In this document: one piece after another, positions 628 through 6,244 of the stretch
Layout: the number at the start of each line of letters is the position of its first letter
Position numbering within the stretch: the first letter of the stretch is position 1
Source: a virus
DNA: 6,244 nt
Strand: one strand, 5' to 3'
IMG/VR virus record: IMGVR_UViG_3300049737_000693
Coordinates: 1 to 6,244 of that record
Notes under the pieces: model-generated
Seen by the model: only the letters and a program-made list of their open reading frames with translations
Databases searched by the model: none
What the model was told of the DNA's origin: nothing
Translations under genes and position numbers: made by a program

Positions 628-782
628 TGGCCACTCCTTACACGCTTGGCACGGCCAGCCTGATAAGCAGTAAGCATAAGAAGCAAGCAAACGACAAATA
701 AATTAAAGAGCGTATAAAAAAGAAAGGCTACACCCTCATTAGTAAGCAAAACGTGCATATTTAAAAAAGGTTGATAATTCAT
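621..782 (-). CDS. 53-aa small membrane peptide of unknown function (MNYQPFLNMHVLLTNEGVAFLFYTLFNLFVVCLLLMLTAYQAGRAKRVRSGQC).
   Basis: The ATG at 782 follows GGGGGT by 5 nt and lies 2 nt after the TAG of the upstream ORF. The peptide has one hydrophobic helix and a basic C-terminal tail. Its stop TAG (623..621) lies inside ATGCTAG, which is the gII start. The TTG at 806 and ATG at 800 have no SD. Confidence 0.5.
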   Translation of the reverse strand: MNYQPFLNMHVLLTNEGVAFLFYTLFNLFVVCLLLMLTAYQAGRAKRVRSGQC

Positions 783-784
783 AA

Positions 785-1108
785 CTAACCCCCAACGCAT
801 TGACAAGAATATAAAACAGGCAAATCAATTTGGGCTAATTCGCAAAATTCACAAAAAGGAACATCAGGGTCAACATGAATTTCGGTAAAAAAGATGCCCT
901 CGACCACCGCAGAAGCGGTTTCAGAGGGACGAGGGCAAAGGGAGGTTTTTAAAATATCTTTTAATCGTTCGTTGTTTTCTAAGACATAATTTAAGTCAAT
1001 AGAGGGCAAAGAAAGGTTTTTATGATAAACATCTGACGCAGCCAAAGACTTTATAAGACTACAAATATCAGTATGACTTAAAGTTAAAGTATATAATTGA
1101 TCTGACAT
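785..1108 (-). CDS. 107-aa hypothetical protein with a C-terminal CxxC...CxC cluster, possibly a zinc-binding regulator. It is the first gene of the leftward operon.
   Basis: The ATG at 1108 follows AGAGGTG by 5 nt, whereas the ORF-track start at 1177 lies upstream of the predicted promoter -10. Cys86/Cys89 (CEFC) and Cys102/Cys104 (CQC) form a Cys4 pattern. I recognise no family. Confidence 0.55.
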   Translation of the reverse strand: MSDQLYTLTLSHTDICSLIKSLAASDVYHKNLSLPSIDLNYVLENNERLKDILKTSLCPRPSETASAVVEGIFFTEIHVDPDVPFCEFCELAQIDLPVLYSCQCVGG

Positions 1109-1119
1109 AATAACACCTC

Positions 1120-1147
1120 TGAATGTGCAAATAGTAGATTTGAATGT
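1120..1147. promoter_or_regulatory. Candidate operator: direct repeats of TGAATGT that bracket the -10 box.
   Basis: TGAATGT occurs at 1120-1126 and 1141-1147, 21 nt apart, which is about two helical turns. One copy lies in the -35/-10 spacer and the other at the predicted transcript start. GTCAA also repeats at 1154-1158 and 1161-1165. Confidence 0.35.
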
Positions 1148-1158
1148 AAACTTGTCAA
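1131..1158 (-). promoter_or_regulatory. Candidate sigma70 promoter for the minus-strand operon (107-aa ORF, 53-aa ORF, gII and downstream genes).
   Basis: On the minus strand there is a perfect -35 TTGACA (1158..1153), a 16-nt spacer and a -10 TACTAT (1136..1131). The first ATG is at 1108. The plus-strand TTGTCA (1152-1157) overlaps back to back and could be the -35 of the divergent promoter, with a weak -10 CATAAC at 1175-1180. Confidence 0.5.
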
Positions 1159-1239
1159 CAGTCAAGGTTACAAACATAACTTATCACGATAAAAACAATA
1201 TAGCAACGTATTTTTAATTATATTATTAGAGGGCTAAAA

Positions 1240-1458
1240 ATGACACGATCAATAAGACTAAACGAGATAGAAAGGAAGTTAATTAAAAAGAAATCAAGAG
1301 AAATAAATAAAAAGCTGGTTATGTCAGGCAGAGAACCGATGAAAGAAAGCGAAATACTACACGAAATATTAGAAAAAACAATAGAAAGGGCAGAGTTAAA
1401 CGGTCAAGGAAATATTGAAATAAGCCTAAATTTAGGCCAAGAGTCCACAACTAAATAA
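1240..1458 (+). CDS. 72-aa ribbon-helix-helix-like DNA-binding protein, a candidate phage repressor/regulator and the only plus-strand gene.
   Basis: AGAGGG lies 6 nt upstream of the ATG. The N-terminus TRSIRLNEIERKLIKKKS fits an RHH beta-strand plus helix A, and MKESEILHEILEKTIERA fits helix B. The gene is transcribed divergently from the main operon, as rstR is in CTXphi. Caveat: it is antisense to a T-rich region that corresponds to Ff origin domain B, and its last codons overlap the origin hairpin. Confidence 0.5.
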   Translation: MTRSIRLNEIERKLIKKKSREINKKLVMSGREPMKESEILHEILEKTIERAELNGQGNIEISLNLGQESTTK

Positions 1459-1467
1459 CGTGGACGA
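1424..1467 (-). promoter_or_regulatory. Ff-type (+)-strand origin core: a nick-site hairpin plus an adjacent palindrome that is the putative Rep binding site.
   Basis: Minus strand 1467->1424 reads TCGTCCAC GTTATTTAGTT GTGGACTC TTG GCCTAAATTTAGGC. The f1 origin as I recall it reads GAGTCCAC GTTCTTTAATA GTGGACTC TTG TTCCAAACTGGAA. That gives 22/27 identity over the hairpin, the same 11-nt loop, the same TTG spacer and a palindrome in the same place. The stem pairs 1465..1460 with 1448..1443. The nick predicted by analogy is GTTATTT^AGTT, between 1453 and 1452. Confidence 0.8.
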
Positions 1468-1545: not shown

Positions 1546-1615
1546 GCTAACGGCTGTTAATTGAGGGGTCTCTATCGTTGATTATCGAAAAGAAGTTAAC
1601 TGGAGAAAAAGAAGT

Positions 1616-2935
1616 TTAACTTGATGCAGGATTGGGCGCAGTAGATGCCAGTGCAGGAGGTGCAGAGCTTTTAACTTTTGGGAGCATACCTTTTTTTGAT
1701 AAGTAGGCCTTGCAATCAGTATCAGAGATATGAGAGAGCAAAGCACCGTTACTATTATACAAAGAACACTCACCGTACATCTGCATACCAGAGACAGGAA
1801 CAAGGTTTATATCTTCGATATAGCCACCGCTTAAAGGGTCATAAATACCAGATGGCACAGCATCAGCATCAGCATCAGGAAGCGGAGCAGGGGCAACAGT
1901 AGGCGGAACAGCTTTATCCTGAGCTTTTGGAGCATCAAAAGGATTTTTAGTCATATCAGCAGTTGGAACATCAAAAGCAGGGTCTTTACCCATCATGCCA
2001 TTAACCAAAGTAGAGTCTTTTGAACCACTAGCAGCCCACACAAACATAGCTATAGCAAAGAAAATAACGAAAGCAAAACCTATCAACGCCTTAAACGGTA
2101 TGCGCTTTTGATGCGTGTTGATGGTTGTCGATTTATAGAGCTTAAAAAGCCTATCTGGTGGGCTAAAATTGAATTTACGCTCTGCACTCATTTTAATAGA
2201 TACAGCATTGGGATTTTGACGGTATGATCCGTATTGATAAACCTTTGACACCCAGCCCCACGGAACAGTAATATGCCAATGCAGCCCAATCAAATCCTTA
2301 ATCTGAACATGAAGCAAGTTAGCCGACTGAGTGATTAAATAAAAATCAAAACCTCTATGGCGGTGAATAGTCAAATCTTGAATGATAGGCTCATCTTTAT
2401 TCTTTGATTGCTTATAAGGCTCGACAAGCTGAACCTCGTCAATAACGATGATTGACCCATCAGGAGCCTTGCGCCAGTCAATATATTCTCTATCATCAAG
2501 CAAATCATATAGCGAGCGCACAAAGTCGATTTTCAAGGCGTTAATATTGGCGTATATCGTCCGCACTGGTAGCAGATACTTAAAACCAGTGATATTATCA
2601 GTTTCGACAATACGATTAATAATACTATTATAAATAGTAGCAACTTTATAATAGTCATCTGGGCGCAAGTCGTCATACTCGACAGATAACATATCAAAGT
2701 AATCATCTGGCAATATGGTTATTTCTTGCTTAAGCAAATGACCAGAGCCAACATCTTCATAGTAATAGGTCATCTGATTTTGCAAATCATAATCTTTGAT
2801 GATTTTTTGGTTATGCTGATAGTAAGCAATATTTTTAACCAGATTGACTTTGTTCTCCGACTCTGTTTTGTCTAATTTTGAGACGACAAAAACCGTTTTC
2901 TTTGCGCCTGGTACGCCAGTAACTAAGCCTAACAT
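1616..2935 (-). CDS. gI: Assembly/export NTPase of the pI / Zot family, 439 aa, with a cytoplasmic P-loop domain, one TM helix and a periplasmic C-terminal domain.
   Basis: GGAGG lies 9 nt upstream of the ATG at 2935. The Walker A-like GVPGAKKT matches the Zot-type G-x-P-G-x-x-K-T (CTXphi Zot GAPGSYKT, from recall). The Walker B is SIIVIDEVQ. The TM helix is FKALIGFAFVIFFAIAMFVWAA (about residues 281-302), followed by a Pro/Ala-rich linker. The gene follows gVI as in Ff. Confidence 0.85.
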   Translation of the reverse strand: MLGLVTGVPGAKKTVFVVSKLDKTESENKVNLVKNIAYYQHNQKIIKDYDLQNQMTYYYEDVGSGHLLKQEITILPDDYFDMLSVEYDDLRPDDYYKVATIYNSIINRIVETDNITGFKYLLPVRTIYANINALKIDFVRSLYDLLDDREYIDWRKAPDGSIIVIDEVQLVEPYKQSKNKDEPIIQDLTIHRHRGFDFYLITQSANLLHVQIKDLIGLHWHITVPWGWVSKVYQYGSYRQNPNAVSIKMSAERKFNFSPPDRLFKLYKSTTINTHQKRIPFKALIGFAFVIFFAIAMFVWAASGSKDSTLVNGMMGKDPAFDVPTADMTKNPFDAPKAQDKAVPPTVAPAPLPDADADAVPSGIYDPLSGGYIEDINLVPVSGMQMYGECSLYNSNGALLSHISDTDCKAYLSKKGMLPKVKSSAPPALASTAPNPASS

Positions 2936-2956
2936 TTATAAATTCCTCCGTTTTTC

Positions 2957-3006
2957 ATCGTCGTCAATCGTCGTCCCTCCTCTTCCTCCTCCTCAAAACG
3001 TCGTCA
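2957..3006 (-). promoter_or_regulatory. gVI-gI intergenic element: a 21-nt polypurine array of overlapping SD motifs flanked by phased CGTCGTC repeats.
   Basis: The minus strand reads TGACGACG TTTT GAGGAGGAGGAAGAGGAGGGA CGACGAT TGACGACGATG. On the plus strand ATCGTCGTC occurs at 2957-2965 and 2967-2975, and CGTCGTCA at 2999-3006 (starts at 2959, 2969 and 2999). The pyrimidine run spans 2974-2994. Confidence 0.3.
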
Positions 3007-3279
3007 TTTTTTACGTAGTGAGAGTTTAGAAGCGCCCAATGTTGCAGCAGTAACGATTGCGCCCAAAATAATACTAATTGCATAATCAAAACCAGCAATA
3101 TGAGCTAGACTTAAAATATCGGCAGGAATACCACCAGTATTAGCCCTAAACCTATCAATGAATTGATTTATCAAAAACATTGATGCGCCAGCAGTGCCAA
3201 GAGTAAGCCCAGCACCAGTTAAAATATCTTTTAACCAACCTTTATTTAATGACTTTAGTAACGCAGCTAGACTACCCAT
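3004..3279 (-). CDS. gVI: 91-aa hydrophobic minor virion protein, the pVI / Ace positional analogue.
   Basis: It lies between gIII and gI as in Ff and CTXphi. The protein has hydrophobic Gly/Ala-rich segments and a basic C-terminus (LRKK). Its start overlaps the gIII stop in ATGGGTAG (3279..3272), and GGAGGT lies upstream. Confidence 0.65.
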   Translation of the reverse strand: MGSLAALLKSLNKGWLKDILTGAGLTLGTAGASMFLINQFIDRFRANTGGIPADILSLAHIAGFDYAISIILGAIVTAATLGASKLSLRKK

Positions 3280-4564
3280 TTTCTTTACGACCTCCGACTA
3301 TATAAATTGCGAACAAACTTGAAGCAGCATAAACAGGCCATTTAACGTAAGTAGATAGAAAATCACAAAGCATGACAGTATCTAACATCGTGAACTCGAT
3401 AGACTGACCAAAAATAGAGCCATTAAAGACGATAGGCGCAGGGCATGAGCCGCCAAAGTTGAAGTTAGTATCTGTCGGCTGTTCGTCAGGCTCTTGCAAG
3501 TCGATCTCAGTATCTGTCTGCTCAGGCTCAGCCTTAACCCAATCAATAAAATCACAAACAGGCGTAGCCCAATCACAAAACGCTGGCCATTCTGTCGGCA
3601 TAGGGTCAGGGTTTGGGTTTGGGTTTGGATTGTCAGGGTCAGTGTCAGTGTCAGGGTCAGTGTCAGGGTCAGTGCCAGTGTCAGGGTCAGTGCCAGTGTC
3701 AGGCTCAGTGCCGGGCTCATACTCATTCGGGCCGTACTGTTTTGGCTCTGCTTTAGACTCTAGTTGATCGTCTAATTGACCAGATTCTAGCTCGTCTAGT
3801 GCGCTATCTCTGATAACTTCCATGGCTGGAGCTTGACCTTCGTCAGCATATTCGATAACTTTTTGAGCGACTGTGTTAATGGGAATAGATTTCTCTTGAG
3901 GATTGGTATCAGAACCAGAACCAGTGGCATCGCTACCAGTTATCCTAACAGAACCCCAGTTACCACCATCAGCATACTTACAGCCAAACTCAGATTTATA
4001 ATAATCATAAATACCGCCATAAATACCAGATAACCTTACAGGGTCAAAATCAGGGTCTTGAGAGAGCTTAAGAGCTTTACAAAATGCAGTAGGGTTATAA
4101 TAACGCGCACCCTCAAAATCAACATAAGCACCACGTCCGCCAGTATCAGACGGAGAGCCGACAACATCACCATCATCAGTATAAGTGACACTATTGTTAG
4201 CAGGGTCAAGCACCCAATCTACAGTCTTACCTAATATGTCATAGACAGCAGCACCAATAACGCCACCGACACCACCCCTTAGCAATCTTTTGCCAACCTT
4301 AGCAGCATTAGCAGGGATTTTGATTGTTGATTTTTGATTTTTGGTTATTGTGTCTTTTGCGTCAGTTTGTGGGTCAACTACTGTCACCGGATAATTGCGA
4401 TTTGCTTTGACTTCGACTGTACTTTTAACGGTTGGATCATTAACGATTGAGTCATGAAACCATTTAGAGTGTTTAGGGTTTGGGTCATAGACAGCAAAAG
4501 ACGGAACAATGACAAGAGTAAAAGATAGCGCGAACGCTATAAAACGCTTAATTATGATATTCAT
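3272..4564 (-). CDS. gIII: 430-aa pIII-like adsorption/minor coat protein with a signal peptide, an N-terminal receptor domain, a low-complexity linker and a C-terminal anchor domain.
   Basis: AGGGG lies 5 nt upstream of the ATG at 4564. The signal peptide is MNIIIKRFIAFALSFTLVIVPSFA and the linker is EPGTEPDTGTDPDTGTDPDTDPDTDTDPDNPNPNPNPDP. The C-terminal FNFGGSCP...SIEF...LCDF followed by the hydrophobic anchor VYAASSLFAIYIVGGRKENG mirrors the Ff pIII C-domain layout. It is the largest gene after gVIII. Confidence 0.8.
   Translation of the reverse strand: MNIIIKRFIAFALSFTLVIVPSFAVYDPNPKHSKWFHDSIVNDPTVKSTVEVKANRNYPVTVVDPQTDAKDTITKNQKSTIKIPANAAKVGKRLLRGGVGGVIGAAVYDILGKTVDWVLDPANNSVTYTDDGDVVGSPSDTGGRGAYVDFEGARYYNPTAFCKALKLSQDPDFDPVRLSGIYGGIYDYYKSEFGCKYADGGNWGSVRITGSDATGSGSDTNPQEKSIPINTVAQKVIEYADEGQAPAMEVIRDSALDELESGQLDDQLESKAEPKQYGPNEYEPGTEPDTGTDPDTGTDPDTDPDTDTDPDNPNPNPNPDPMPTEWPAFCDWATPVCDFIDWVKAEPEQTDTEIDLQEPDEQPTDTNFNFGGSCPAPIVFNGSIFGQSIEFTMLDTVMLCDFLSTYVKWPVYAASSLFAIYIVGGRKENG
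3609..3715. repeat. Hexanucleotide tandem repeats inside gIII that encode the TD/PD/TG/PN dipeptide linker.
   Basis: GGGTTT x3 occupies 3609-3626. About 14 consecutive GTCAGG/GTCAGT/GCCAGT hexamers follow at 3632-3715, including the 18-nt unit GTCAGGGTCAGTGCCAGT twice in tandem. Confidence 0.9.
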
Positions 4565-4572
4565 ATCAACCC

Positions 4573-4659
4573 CTATCTAAATGACCATGTAACCAAGACA
4601 AGAGCAAAAGCAATCATCGCGTAAGGGAGTAAATTTAGTATGCTAGGGGCATCTGTCAT
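4573..4659 (-). CDS. 28-aa small hydrophobic protein (MTDAPSILNLLPYAMIAFALVLVTWSFR), pVII/pIX-like in architecture. An alternative start at 4665 gives 30 aa.
   Basis: It is absent from the ORF track because it is under 60 aa. AAGGA lies 7 nt upstream of the ATG at 4659. The protein has an acidic N-terminus, one hydrophobic helix and a terminal Arg, as Ff pVII does. Its stop TAG at 4575..4573 lies 8 nt before the gIII ATG, and the gIII SD AGGGG overlaps that stop, so the ORF fills an otherwise empty gap. Confidence 0.5.
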   Translation of the reverse strand: MTDAPSILNLLPYAMIAFALVLVTWSFR

Positions 4660-4671
4660 ATCCATATCCTT

Positions 4672-4709
4672 AAAAAAAAGATAGCCCTACTTTTTAGGGT
4701 AGAGCTATC
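4672..4709 (-). terminator. Rho-independent terminator immediately downstream of the major coat gene.
   Basis: The minus strand reads GATAGCUCUAC ccuaaaaa GUAGGGCUAUC UUUUUUUU. This is an 11-bp stem with one G-U pair (4709..4699 pairing with 4690..4680), an 8-nt loop and a U8 tract (4679..4672). It occupies the same position as the Ff terminator after gVIII. Confidence 0.8.
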
Positions 4710-4730
4710 ATTTAAACGCTATAGAACAAA

Positions 4731-4985
4731 TTAGGCTTTGTTAACGCCTGATTTGAGGTATTGATAGCCTTTAAATGTACCCAGAATACCAACACCAATG
4801 GCGAAAATACCTAAAGCAACCGCTAAAGCAGCGCTGATATTTTCAGTTACACCCGTACCCAAAGCAGTAATATTATCTTCTGCCAGTGCTGCATTAGTAG
4901 CACCAATAACGGCAAATGCTACGGCAGCTTGTGCTAGGGTATTGCGCTTTTTAGTTGGCGCGGCAACAACTTGATTTTCTGACAT
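4731..4985 (-). CDS. gVIII: Major coat protein precursor (pVIII-like), 84 aa, with a predicted 35-aa signal peptide and a 49-aa mature protein.
   Basis: AAGGAAAG lies upstream of the ATG at 4985. The signal sequence ends in ALA, followed by mature EDNITALGTGVTENISAALAVALGIFAIGVGILGTFKGYQYLKSGVNKA. That mature protein has an acidic N-terminus, a hydrophobic core and a Lys-rich C-terminus, which is the canonical inovirus coat layout. The ORF-track start at 5069 overlaps the upstream gene and has no SD. Confidence 0.85.
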   Translation of the reverse strand: MSENQVVAAPTKKRNTLAQAAVAFAVIGATNAALAEDNITALGTGVTENISAALAVALGIFAIGVGILGTFKGYQYLKSGVNKA

Positions 4986-4999
4986 GACAGCTTTCCTTT

Positions 5000-5182
5000 T
5001 TAAGCTAGTTTTATTGCCTTTGCTATGATTGCGTAAGATGCACACATAGCAAAGAATGATATGACCCATTGCCCAACCAGATAAGCATCAGCTTGAGATA
5101 AGGCTAAGGTCTGTGGGGCGTTATAAACGACCCATTCCATGCACGTATTAGAAACTTGATCAAGAGTCTGGCAGACGTACAT
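5000..5182 (-). CDS. 60-aa small protein with a C-terminal TM helix, at the position of Ff gVII/gIX.
   Basis: AAGGAA lies 4 nt upstream of the ATG at 5182. The hydrophobic segment is LVGQWVISFFAMCASYAIIAKAI. It sits between the gV-position ORF and gVIII, and its stop is 15 nt before the gVIII ATG. Confidence 0.55.
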   Translation of the reverse strand: MYVCQTLDQVSNTCMEWVVYNAPQTLALSQADAYLVGQWVISFFAMCASYAIIAKAIKLA

Positions 5183-5487: not shown

Positions 5488-5871
5488 CTAAGCGACTAAG
5501 CGCGGTTTATTGTAGCGGTTGAAGTAGTGGTCATAATCAGGACGATGTAAAGAGTTTGGCGGAACGTAACCATCAGGAGCTTGTTTAGAAAAATCAATTT
5601 TTACAATATCAACCATAGGCAAAACACGGGCATGAGTGCCAAGATTTTGCAAATGGGCTTTAGGAATACCAATATCAACAAGGCATTTAACAAGGTTGTT
5701 AAACTGAGAAGAACTATAGCGACCTTTAATAGCATCATAGCCATTAATTTTTAACAACTGAAAAAAGTTAAAAGCATTGTTCGCTTTTGTGTAACTGATA
5801 TTACCTTTAGCGGTATAGCTAACTAGCTTTGATCTACATAACTTTTGAATTTCTTTATCACTAATATCCAT
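5488..5871 (-). CDS. gX: Candidate nested gene X: an in-frame internal start within gII giving a 127-aa C-terminal product.
   Basis: The internal ATG at 5871 (EGEV-MDISDKEIQ) aligns with the Ff pX start (EGDS-MNIYDDSAV). GAAGGTGA lies 4 nt upstream of it. Confidence 0.45.
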   Translation of the reverse strand: MDISDKEIQKLCRSKLVSYTAKGNISYTKANNAFNFFQLLKINGYDAIKGRYSSSQFNNLVKCLVDIGIPKAHLQNLGTHARVLPMVDIVKIDFSKQAPDGYVPPNSLHRPDYDHYFNRYNKPRLVA

Positions 5872-6244
5872 GACTTCACCTTCGAGAGCTTTGAGAATAG
5901 GCGCGAACCCTTCAAGCCATAATTTTTGTAGTAAATTTGGGTGTCTGTATTGGTACTCTATCAAACGCCATAAATTAGTAGGTAAACCGGAACGCTCAAG
6001 CTTACGAGCCATGACGCTATGTTCGAAACGCAGCAAGCAAGATGAGAATTTTATTAATTCGGGTGTGTAAACCTTTAAAGCGTCACGAGAATGTAAACAA
6101 CCTTTATCAGATTTTTTTTGCAATTTTTCTATAGTGTGCTTAACCTCATTACCTTTTCCATAGACCTTAGAGCGCACCAAGCGAGAAGTCGCACCGCCAT
6201 AATAAGCAGTATTAATAAAGTCGCGCTTTTTAGTGTCGTTTTTT
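5488..6244 (-). CDS. gII: Replication initiation protein, Ff gene II family, C-terminal part. The 5' end runs off the window, and 6118-6244 duplicates 1-127.
   Basis: It is in frame with the 1..627 fragment (627-63 is divisible by 3). LLRFEHSVMARKLERSGLPTNLW, GIPKAHLQNLGT and VLPMVDIVKIDFSKQAPDGY parallel f1 pII LVRFEARIKTRYLKSFGLPLNLF, GIPKSQLMNLST and VVPLVRFINVDFSSQRPDWY (from recall). The ORF-track start at 6180 is only the first TTG inside the window. Confidence 0.9.
   Translation of the reverse strand, partial: KNDTKKRDFINTAYYGGATSRLVRSKVYGKGNEVKHTIEKLQKKSDKGCLHSRDALKVYTPELIKFSSCLLRFEHSVMARKLERSGLPTNLWRLIEYQYRHPNLLQKLWLEGFAPILKALEGEVMDISDKEIQKLCRSKLVSYTAKGNISYTKANNAFNFFQLLKINGYDAIKGRYSSSQFNNLVKCLVDIGIPKAHLQNLGTHARVLPMVDIVKIDFSKQAPDGYVPPNSLHRPDYDHYFNRYNKPRLVA
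6118..6244. repeat. Terminal overlap copy B, identical to 1-127.
   Basis: Same comparison as copy A. A length of exactly 127 nt is what a k=127 de Bruijn assembler leaves on a circular contig. Confidence 0.95.

Follow-up and report, generated by a model that had tools for sequence, protein, structure and literature searches.

A probable Ff-type viral-strand replication origin in the non-structural region of an inovirus genome from IMG/VR

We analysed the 6,244 nucleotides of IMG/VR virus record IMGVR_UViG_3300049737_000693 (hereafter the window, meaning the whole of that stretch) and in particular a 44-nt element that runs on the minus strand from 1467 to 1424. This element is very probably the core of a viral-strand (+) rolling-circle origin and termination site, homologous to those of the Ff phages (f1, fd and M13) and of IKe, in an inovirus of about 6.1 kb. 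A gene of the pII initiator family (Rep) lies on the same strand and carries the catalytic motifs, the hairpin and its loop keep the Ff register, the segment GTGGACTCTTG is present, and a dyad is found about 22 nt from the predicted nick. An Ff-type (+) origin had already been proposed in a first-pass annotation made from the letters alone, and this reading stands, as sequence, loop length, spacer and dyad position are all homologous and the pII-family gene is located downstream on the same strand. Since bases 1–127 are repeated directly at 6118–6244, the genome is circular, with a unit length of 6,117 nt (G+C 39.6%). The inovirus gene order is canonical, and every large open reading frame (ORF) is on the minus strand, which is thus the viral (+) strand. 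The element sits inside a 988-nt non-structural region extending from gI to Rep (1615–628).

On re-reading, the minus strand between 1467 and 1424 has exactly the sequence first quoted for it, TCGTCCAC-GTTATTTAGTT-GTGGACTC-TTG-GCCTAAATTTAGGC (Table 1). The f1 core that the first-pass annotation had given for comparison is likewise authentic, a 125-nt stretch of f1 being 100% identical to M13 (V00604.2, 5744–5868). Window and M13 agree at 22 of 27 hairpin positions, as claimed, at 25 of 30 if TTG is included and at 31 of 44 overall; the loop has 11 nt in both the window and Ff, the TTG spacer is identical, and GCCTAAATTTAGGC is indeed a perfect 14-nt palindrome. To search the window we used a pattern built from f1, IKe and a Vibrio phage only, with the window left out (GTCCAC-N4-TTTA-N3-GTGGACTCTTG, 17 bases). 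It matched once, with no mismatches, and was found in none of 200 dinucleotide shuffles even at three mismatches; GTGGACTCTTG, the duplex segment between nick and dyad, is matched exactly at 1448–1438. When the intergenic regions of window and M13 were aligned locally over their full extent, the best match was window 1465–1431 against M13 5768–5802 (z = 6.6, 0/300 shuffles), with the reverse strand at background score. When folded as single-stranded DNA (ssDNA), the viral strand forms both predicted hairpins (−7.9 kcal/mol, z = −3.9). A scan against Rfam gave no matches. A chance origin of the match to the Ff core is excluded.

The nick had been predicted within the loop at GTTATTT^AGTT, between 1453 and 1452. 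This position, which we place by homology, is in exact register with the rep_origin of fd at 5782, where the record puts its 'origin of viral strand synthesis' on the A that opens AATA, and with the published TTCTTT^AATA cut. In f1 this cut lies between 5781 and 5782, in an origin with two neighbouring hairpins, A1 and A2, and the beta, gamma and delta repeats (PMC4403547, PMC11765958). The homologous hairpins of IKe are annotated as 'viral-strand origin stem loop' (X02139.1, 6554–6580 and 6582–6599). Across 20 diverse origins, the positions that flank the nick are the most conserved columns of the loop: T-3, T-1 and T+3 are invariant, as are the innermost two stem pairs (left A, C; right G, T), and A+1 is nearly so.

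The IKe record also notes 'pot. transcription termination' for the same hairpins. In the window they lie between convergent genes, and TTATTT follows the palindrome on the viral strand, so one could take the two hairpins for a transcription terminator between the gI transcript and a small antisense gene. We consider this highly improbable, as no terminator-like site was found between 600 and 1700 on either strand and an 11-nt loop on a 6-bp stem makes a poor terminator. Moreover, it would leave unexplained the invariant loop, the fixed spacing of the dyad and the same-strand linkage to Rep. The hairpins may nonetheless have a secondary role as terminator.

The window Rep, described in the first-pass annotation as a pII homologue, contains Phage_CRI and G2P_X_C domains and is 35% identical to M13 pII over ~400 residues (E = 3e-67). 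It is also 34% identical to IKe Rep over 99% of its length; no PDB relative was found by sequence profile. Its Y195 aligns with Y197 of M13 pII, reportedly the catalytic residue, and in a set of eight diverse Reps no variation is seen at D3, D139, Y195, K197, R239 and E241. The protein carries YGKGNE and LLRFE, and its invariant residues fit Rep_trans-like motifs N', I, III and IV; these Rep_trans motifs (III, YxKxxE; IV, LxRxE) have also been noted in Phage_CRI proteins (PMC5714925). Further along the protein, M292 (ATG 5871–5869, minus strand) aligns with the start of M13 pX at pII M300, and AAGGTG stands just before it; an equivalent of pX is thus likely, and a pX-like protein of residues 292–418 is probably made. 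Two other classes of rolling-circle origin were rejected. For the HUH-endonuclease origins of phiX174, circoviruses and pC194/pMV158, Rep gave no HUH-family Pfam match, and the window loop is unrelated in sequence to the HUH nonanucleotides. For a pT181-type double-strand origin (dso), Rep has no Rep_trans domain (PF02486), Pfam giving only PF05144 and PF05155 at E <= 0.01.

We then surveyed related origins (loci are numbered L). Exact matches to GTCCAC-N11-GTGGACTCTTG were obtained at 112 loci in IMG/VR, most of them on contigs of 6–8 kb, and a pII-family Rep was encoded on the motif strand in 104 of these loci and on the opposite strand in none. Rep was downstream of the core in 92 loci, at a median distance of 400 nt (838 nt in the window). 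The loop conformed to nnnnTyTArTn in 55 of the 58 distinct cores, and the three off-consensus loops all belonged to the eight loci without a Rep match. Selection on the motif was avoided in a second sample of 80 loci, 65 of them usable, which were picked by Rep similarity only. A strict detector (6-bp stem, consensus loop and perfect palindrome) was positive on the Rep strand in 20 of these 65 loci, and never on the reverse strand or in shuffles. Forty of the remaining 45 have a hairpin of the GCACAC...GTGTGC or GTCCAC...GTGGAC type with an imperfect or absent dyad, and under relaxed detection these hairpins keep the TCT-AAT/TCT-AGT loop register. L127 has merely a 5-bp version, and in L129, L130, L142 and L149 (Rep 42–43% identical) no nick hairpin was found within 1.5 kb upstream of Rep under relaxed rules. 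In these four loci, where the upstream sequence is shorter than 900 nt, the origin may be located outside the sequence retrieved, or it may be of a different kind.

In every catalogued relative examined, the origin architecture was found upstream of Rep and on the Rep strand. The nick hairpin is GTCCAC...GTGGAC in IKe, Vibrio phage 10N.239.311.B03_PE002, Acinetobacter phage M02 and Pseudomonas phage 42-1; the arms are swapped in Dulem virus 52 (GTGGAC...GTCCAC), and the hairpin is TGTACAC...GTGTACA in Dulem virus 62, ATCCAC...GTGGAT in Dulem virus 63 and GCACAC...GTGTGC in Dulem virus 65. For the uncultured or poorly studied phages among these relatives, the GenBank records fetched annotate no origin feature. 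In the open-access literature we found no comparative study of inovirus (+) origins, and searches with the core string gave only f1-ori cloning vectors. The sole reference-genome match to the core with a TTTAGT loop is a 977-bp contig of Psychrobacter saeujeotis FBL11 (L204, NZ_JBDGHN010000012.1), which reads GTCCAC-ACTCTTTAGTA-GTGGACTCTTG-TCCTATATTTAGGA on the minus strand at 885–912. This contig and the relationship by Rep to Acinetobacter phage M02 together hint that the host of the window phage belongs to the Moraxellaceae. M02 (L007) itself has a dif-like ATAATGTATATTATGTTAAAT at ~5925–5950, apart from its origin at 4003, which suggests XerCD-mediated integration of that phage. A XerCD dif-like attP was rejected for the window, where the dif core ATAATGTATATTATGTTAAAT has no match with up to 3 mismatches.

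The palindrome next to the hairpin showed a different kind of conservation. In 79% of 68 consensus-loop origins, as against 2.5% of shuffles, there is a perfect inverted repeat whose arms are 5 nt or longer. In this set the centres of the dyads, counted from the nick, fall solely at +22.0 or +22.5, and the dyads have 23 different half-sites; a position that is fixed while the sequence is free is typical of a site bound specifically by the initiator. The window dyad (arm 7) has its centre at +22.5 and its right end at +29. The annotated 15-nt palindrome of fd, GTTCCAAACTGGAAC, spans +15 to +29 around +22.0, and the widest fd repeat (arm 8, with the TT of TCTTG) ends at +31. Even palindromes of the form xxxxAAATTTxxxx also occur in L126, L048/L081 and Dulem virus 63, and the Psychrobacter contig has a related CCTA...TAGG dyad beside its TTTAGT loop. 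The dyad is not universal in the family, since most of the loci selected by Rep keep the hairpin without a perfect dyad.

To relate the dyad to the initiator, we compared 48 Reps (from loci among L012–L122) whose origins have the same nick hairpin and the half-sites TCTCAT, TCTAAC or TGCAAT. Overall Rep identity was 0.69 within a half-site class and 0.72 between classes. A within-class excess was seen solely in a C-terminal stretch, at about residues 287–356, with a peak of 0.14 at 325–344 (M13 pII 339–358) that was reached in 0 of 1000 permutations of the half-site labels, a procedure that ignores phylogeny. The stretch lies in the G2P_X_C domain common to pX. As the N-terminal domain separates it from the origin, simple linkage is an unlikely cause. 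These comparisons give us moderate confidence that the C-terminal domain of Rep tracks the dyad half-site, and the dyad is probably read by this domain, which is common to Rep and pX.

Operators, too, are typically palindromic, and a conserved small antisense gene adjoins the element both in the window (1240–1458) and in Dulem viruses 62, 63 and 65. The palindrome GCCTAAATTTAGGC might therefore be mainly an operator for the small protein, which is possibly DNA-binding, and the hairpin incidental. We regard this as very unlikely, although slightly less so than the terminator, for the dyad is located at the 3' end of the small gene and not at its promoter. In addition, a dyad at +22 is retained by Ff, IKe, Vibrio and Pseudomonas phages, which do not have the small gene, and the half-site class covaries with the C-terminal domain of Rep. 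In f1 the same position is that of the beta and gamma repeats, to which binding of pII has been mapped (PMC11765958, figure 3 legend).

The element is also conserved locally. An IMG/VR locus (L004, with a second copy, L111) encodes a Rep 98% identical to that of the window. L004/L111 share with the window only the replication module (intergenic region, Rep and gV), at 82–92% identity (about 85%); their structural and assembly genes are 66–69% identical or unalignable, which implies, from the sequences compared, module exchange between inoviruses. The mosaic span extends from window 1607 to 5128 through the junction. In the intergenic region, which is ~18% diverged, 1478–1425 forms a perfect run of 54 nt between flanks conserved at 87% and 71%. 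Outside the coding sequences of Rep and gV no perfect run is longer, and divergence restarts at the last base of the palindrome.

Such a site could still be a true pII-type nick site that serves termination only or is vestigial, with initiation depending on sequences elsewhere. There is a precedent in Ff, where a shortened core (ori2) terminates without initiating (PMC4403547), and no equivalent of the delta repeat or of domain B was identified in the window. However, the site is the only one of its kind in the genome, a diverged relative carries it unchanged, and it has the full hairpin and dyad, which suffice for Ff core function. We therefore give this explanation as small a chance as the terminator. 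Together, the three rivals take up only a minor part of the probability, and an Ff-type (+) origin remains the preferred reading.

Several observations weigh against this reading. On the 3' side of the nick the window has AGTT and Ff has AATA; the G at +2 is found as well in Dulem virus 62, L126, L127, L184 and the Psychrobacter contig. The stem has 6 bp (GTCCAC/GTGGAC) and not 8, as it lacks the two outermost pairs of Ff (TC vs GA), although the right arm still reads ...ACTC; this conservation of the right arm beyond pairing suggests sequence-specific recognition of the duplex. Neither a third (delta) repeat nor an enhancer of the IHF type could be clearly made out by eye in the window, where TTTAGGC (+23 to +29) is followed by TTTCAAT (+33 to +39; TTTCTAT in L004) with a match of 3/7. 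Alignment of the whole intergenic region with that of IKe picks the same window site (z = 2.5), but this pairwise match alone is marginal (8/300 shuffles). In the stems of the 20 representative origins 95% of cells were paired, against 30–47% with a slid partner, 0/500 shuffles reached the score, and compensatory double changes were seen in 6 of 8 pairs; the covariation test is, however, partly circular, since some of the variant hairpins were found via a complementarity search. The local conservation described above is essentially that against one diverged relative, L004 and L111 being almost identical to each other. Finally, nicking and dependence on Rep are expected here by homology, and the region that would correspond to Ff domain B is the antisense of a coding gene. 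The first-pass annotation had described the sequence downstream of the core as T-rich, like Ff domain B. T-rich it is (51% T in the next 100 nt, 98th percentile of the genome), with 66% A+T and 71% conservation against L004 in the 100 nt 3' of the core, but the likeness to domain B is weak, because the stretch is the antisense of a conserved Lys/Glu-rich gene and M13 domain B is A+T-rich, not T-rich.

If the element is an Ff-type origin, the 14-bp dyad GCCTAAATTTAGGC, whose centre is 22.5 nt 3' of the nick, would be where Rep binds the supercoiled replicative form. Judging from f1 and pT181 biochemistry, this binding, together with GTGGACTCTTG, would distort or melt GTCCAC-N11-GTGGAC and present the 11-nt loop in single-stranded form. 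Tyr195 of Rep would then cleave between T1453 and A1452 (GTTATTT^AGTT), as predicted from the nick register of fd and f1, and the 3'-OH would prime synthesis by a host polymerase. After one round, Rep would presumably cleave the regenerated site and ligate the displaced viral strand into a circle. In such a scheme, the nick hairpin would be a catalytic substrate for the whole family and the dyad a phage-specific address.

This can be extended to a modular code, to which we give somewhat less than an even chance. Here a near-universal nick hairpin (GTCCAC-N4-TyT^ArT-N-GTGGACTCTTG, or covarying stems) would be the substrate and a private dyad 22 nt downstream the address, read by the domain shared with pX; pX would be a competitive origin binder, and the window pair, with its dyad GCCTAAATTTAGGC, would form a group of its own, of incompatibility or of specificity, orthogonal to Ff. 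If so, the Rep and origin of the window would make up an independent phagemid or ssDNA-production system, and Rep–origin specificity across uncultured inoviruses would be predictable from sequence. An Ff-type origin is expected in an inovirus that encodes pII, and current understanding stands. For the window genome, the predicted origin would fix the viral strand, the start and termination point of replication, the unit-length junction and the nick at 1453|1452. More generally, the Ff core appears nearly base for base in inoviruses of Enterobacteria, Vibrio, Pseudomonas, Acinetobacter and probably Psychrobacter, with initiators only ~35% identical. This offers a simple way to annotate (+) origins in the thousands of genomes from uncultured inoviruses, and it suggests where Rep/origin pairs orthogonal to f1 might be found for use in biotechnology.

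With regard to the rest of the genome (Table 1), a Logan assembly contig of run SRR32281886 matches the window, and the independent gene calls made there agree. Megablast with the whole genome gave no match among GenBank phages, blastn of the intergenic region against 2.3 Gb gave f1 only at E = 6, and a Rep-based search of reference bacterial genomes gave no relative. The small antisense ORF of 72 aa, which was called independently in the Logan contig, is 30–35% identical to the antisense coding sequences beside the origins of Dulem viruses 62, 63 and 65; the order origin, antisense small gene, rep is, on this comparison, a conserved module. The gene overlaps the origin only with its last 10, non-conserved codons (63–72) and its stop TAA (1456–1458), which is inside the nick loop. 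By eye, the N-terminus of the 72-aa protein resembles a ribbon-helix-helix regulator; neither PDB nor Pfam gave a match for this protein.

Directly upstream of the (+) origin, the window can form a long imperfect hairpin (1476–1586), whose apical stem (1523–1542) changes from CCCAGC/GCTGGG to CTTGGC/GCCAAG in L004, with three compensatory pairs. In Ff the order is packaging signal, (−) origin and (+) origin, and by its position this hairpin is possibly a candidate packaging signal or (−) strand origin. On the other side, the 157 nt upstream of Rep (628–784, minus strand) are 95% conserved against L004, include two perfect runs (50 and 42 nt) and overlap a 53-aa ORF called in the Logan contig; this stretch may hold the Rep promoter or operator. 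Between it and the antisense gene, a 130-aa ORF (785–1177, minus strand) is 64% conserved against L004 and gave no family match. In the g3-like gene, 3600–3720 (minus strand) encodes a repetitive linker rich in Asp, Pro, Thr and Gly (…PDTGTDPDTGTDPDTDPDTDTDPDNPNPNPNPDP…) through tandem repeats of the GTCAGGGTCAGTG type.

Table 1. Coordinates of the predicted origin, neighbouring elements and genes in the window
Feature	Coordinates	Strand	Details
Left arm GTCCAC	1460–1465	minus	TCGTCCAC is 1467–1460, outer TC unpaired; six pairs form with 1443–1448
11-nt loop GTTATTT^AGTT	1449–1459	minus	Predicted Rep nick between 1453 and 1452
Right arm GTGGACTC	1441–1448	minus	GTGGAC pairs with left arm; TC kept in sequence, unpaired here
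TTG spacer, hairpin to dyad	1438–1440	minus	Identical in fd, IKe, Vibrio phage and most IMG/VR instances
14-bp perfect palindrome GCCTAAATTTAGGC, predicted Rep-binding dyad	1424–1437		Equivalent of Ff beta/gamma repeats, hairpin A2
T-rich tract directly 5' of hairpin	1466–1478	minus	Within invariant 54-nt block
Small antisense gene, 72 aa	1240–1458	plus	phrog_5642, E = 8.8e-20, residues 1–62
Long imperfect hairpin, directly upstream of predicted (+) origin	1476–1586	minus	82-nt core z = −3.4, 0/200 shuffles
Rep, pII family, 418 aa	627–1 and 6117–5488, across circular junction	minus	Pfam Phage_CRI 5.7e-36, G2P_X_C 1e-15
Rep, 5' part	1–627	minus	ATG 627–625; ribosome-binding site AAGGAG before ATG
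Rep, 3' part	5488–6117	minus	YxKxxE (Y195), LxRxE (R239, E241), G2P_X_C, probable internal pX start ATG 5871–5869
gV-like	5478–5191	minus	
Small ORF	5182–5000	minus	
Major-coat-like	about 4985–4731	minus	
g3-like	4564–3272	minus	
DUF2523/g6	3279–3004	minus	
Zot/gI	2935–1616	minus	

Compared with known systems, the predicted origin has the same order of parts as that of Ff, namely inverted repeat, 11-nt loop, GTGGACTCTTG and dyad, with the nick register TTT^A in common. In both, the dyad ends at +29 and the origin lies upstream of gene II or Rep on the viral strand. They differ in the dyad itself, which is GTTCCA-AAC-TGGAAC in Ff and an even 14-bp GCCTAAA/TTTAGGC of unrelated sequence in the window, so that cross-recognition by Ff pII is not expected. 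They also differ in distance, as the M13 origin is about 220 nt from gene II, whereas that of the window is 838 nt from Rep, with two ORFs between. The g3-like linker of the window is reminiscent of the Gly-rich linkers in Ff pIII. IKe (Lineavirus) has two hairpins arranged as in the window, and its GTCCAC...GTGGACTCTTG core is identical, but the 5' half of its loop is TATGTTT in place of GTTATTT, and its dyad is a different one (GTTGCA-TTT-TGCAAC). Closest in detail to the window are the origins of uncultured or poorly studied inoviruses of the pII family. The TTTAGT loop is found in the window, Dulem virus 62, L126, L127 and the Psychrobacter contig, and the succession of origin, antisense small gene and rep in the window and Dulem viruses 62, 63 and 65. 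The stems of these relatives nevertheless differ from that of the window (TGTACAC, ATCCAC, GCACAC or swapped GTGGAC/GTCCAC), and many of those with GCACAC have no perfect dyad. Plasmids of the pT181 family (RepC/RepD) follow the same logic as the window, a comparison of how the two would work and not of membership: the pT181 dso has no sequence similarity to the window origin, and the initiators are alike at motif level only (PMC5714925). In pT181-family initiators a variable C-terminal determinant sets the specificity for the dso (PMC5703833), and the apparent tracking of the half-site by the C-terminal domain of Rep parallels this determinant.

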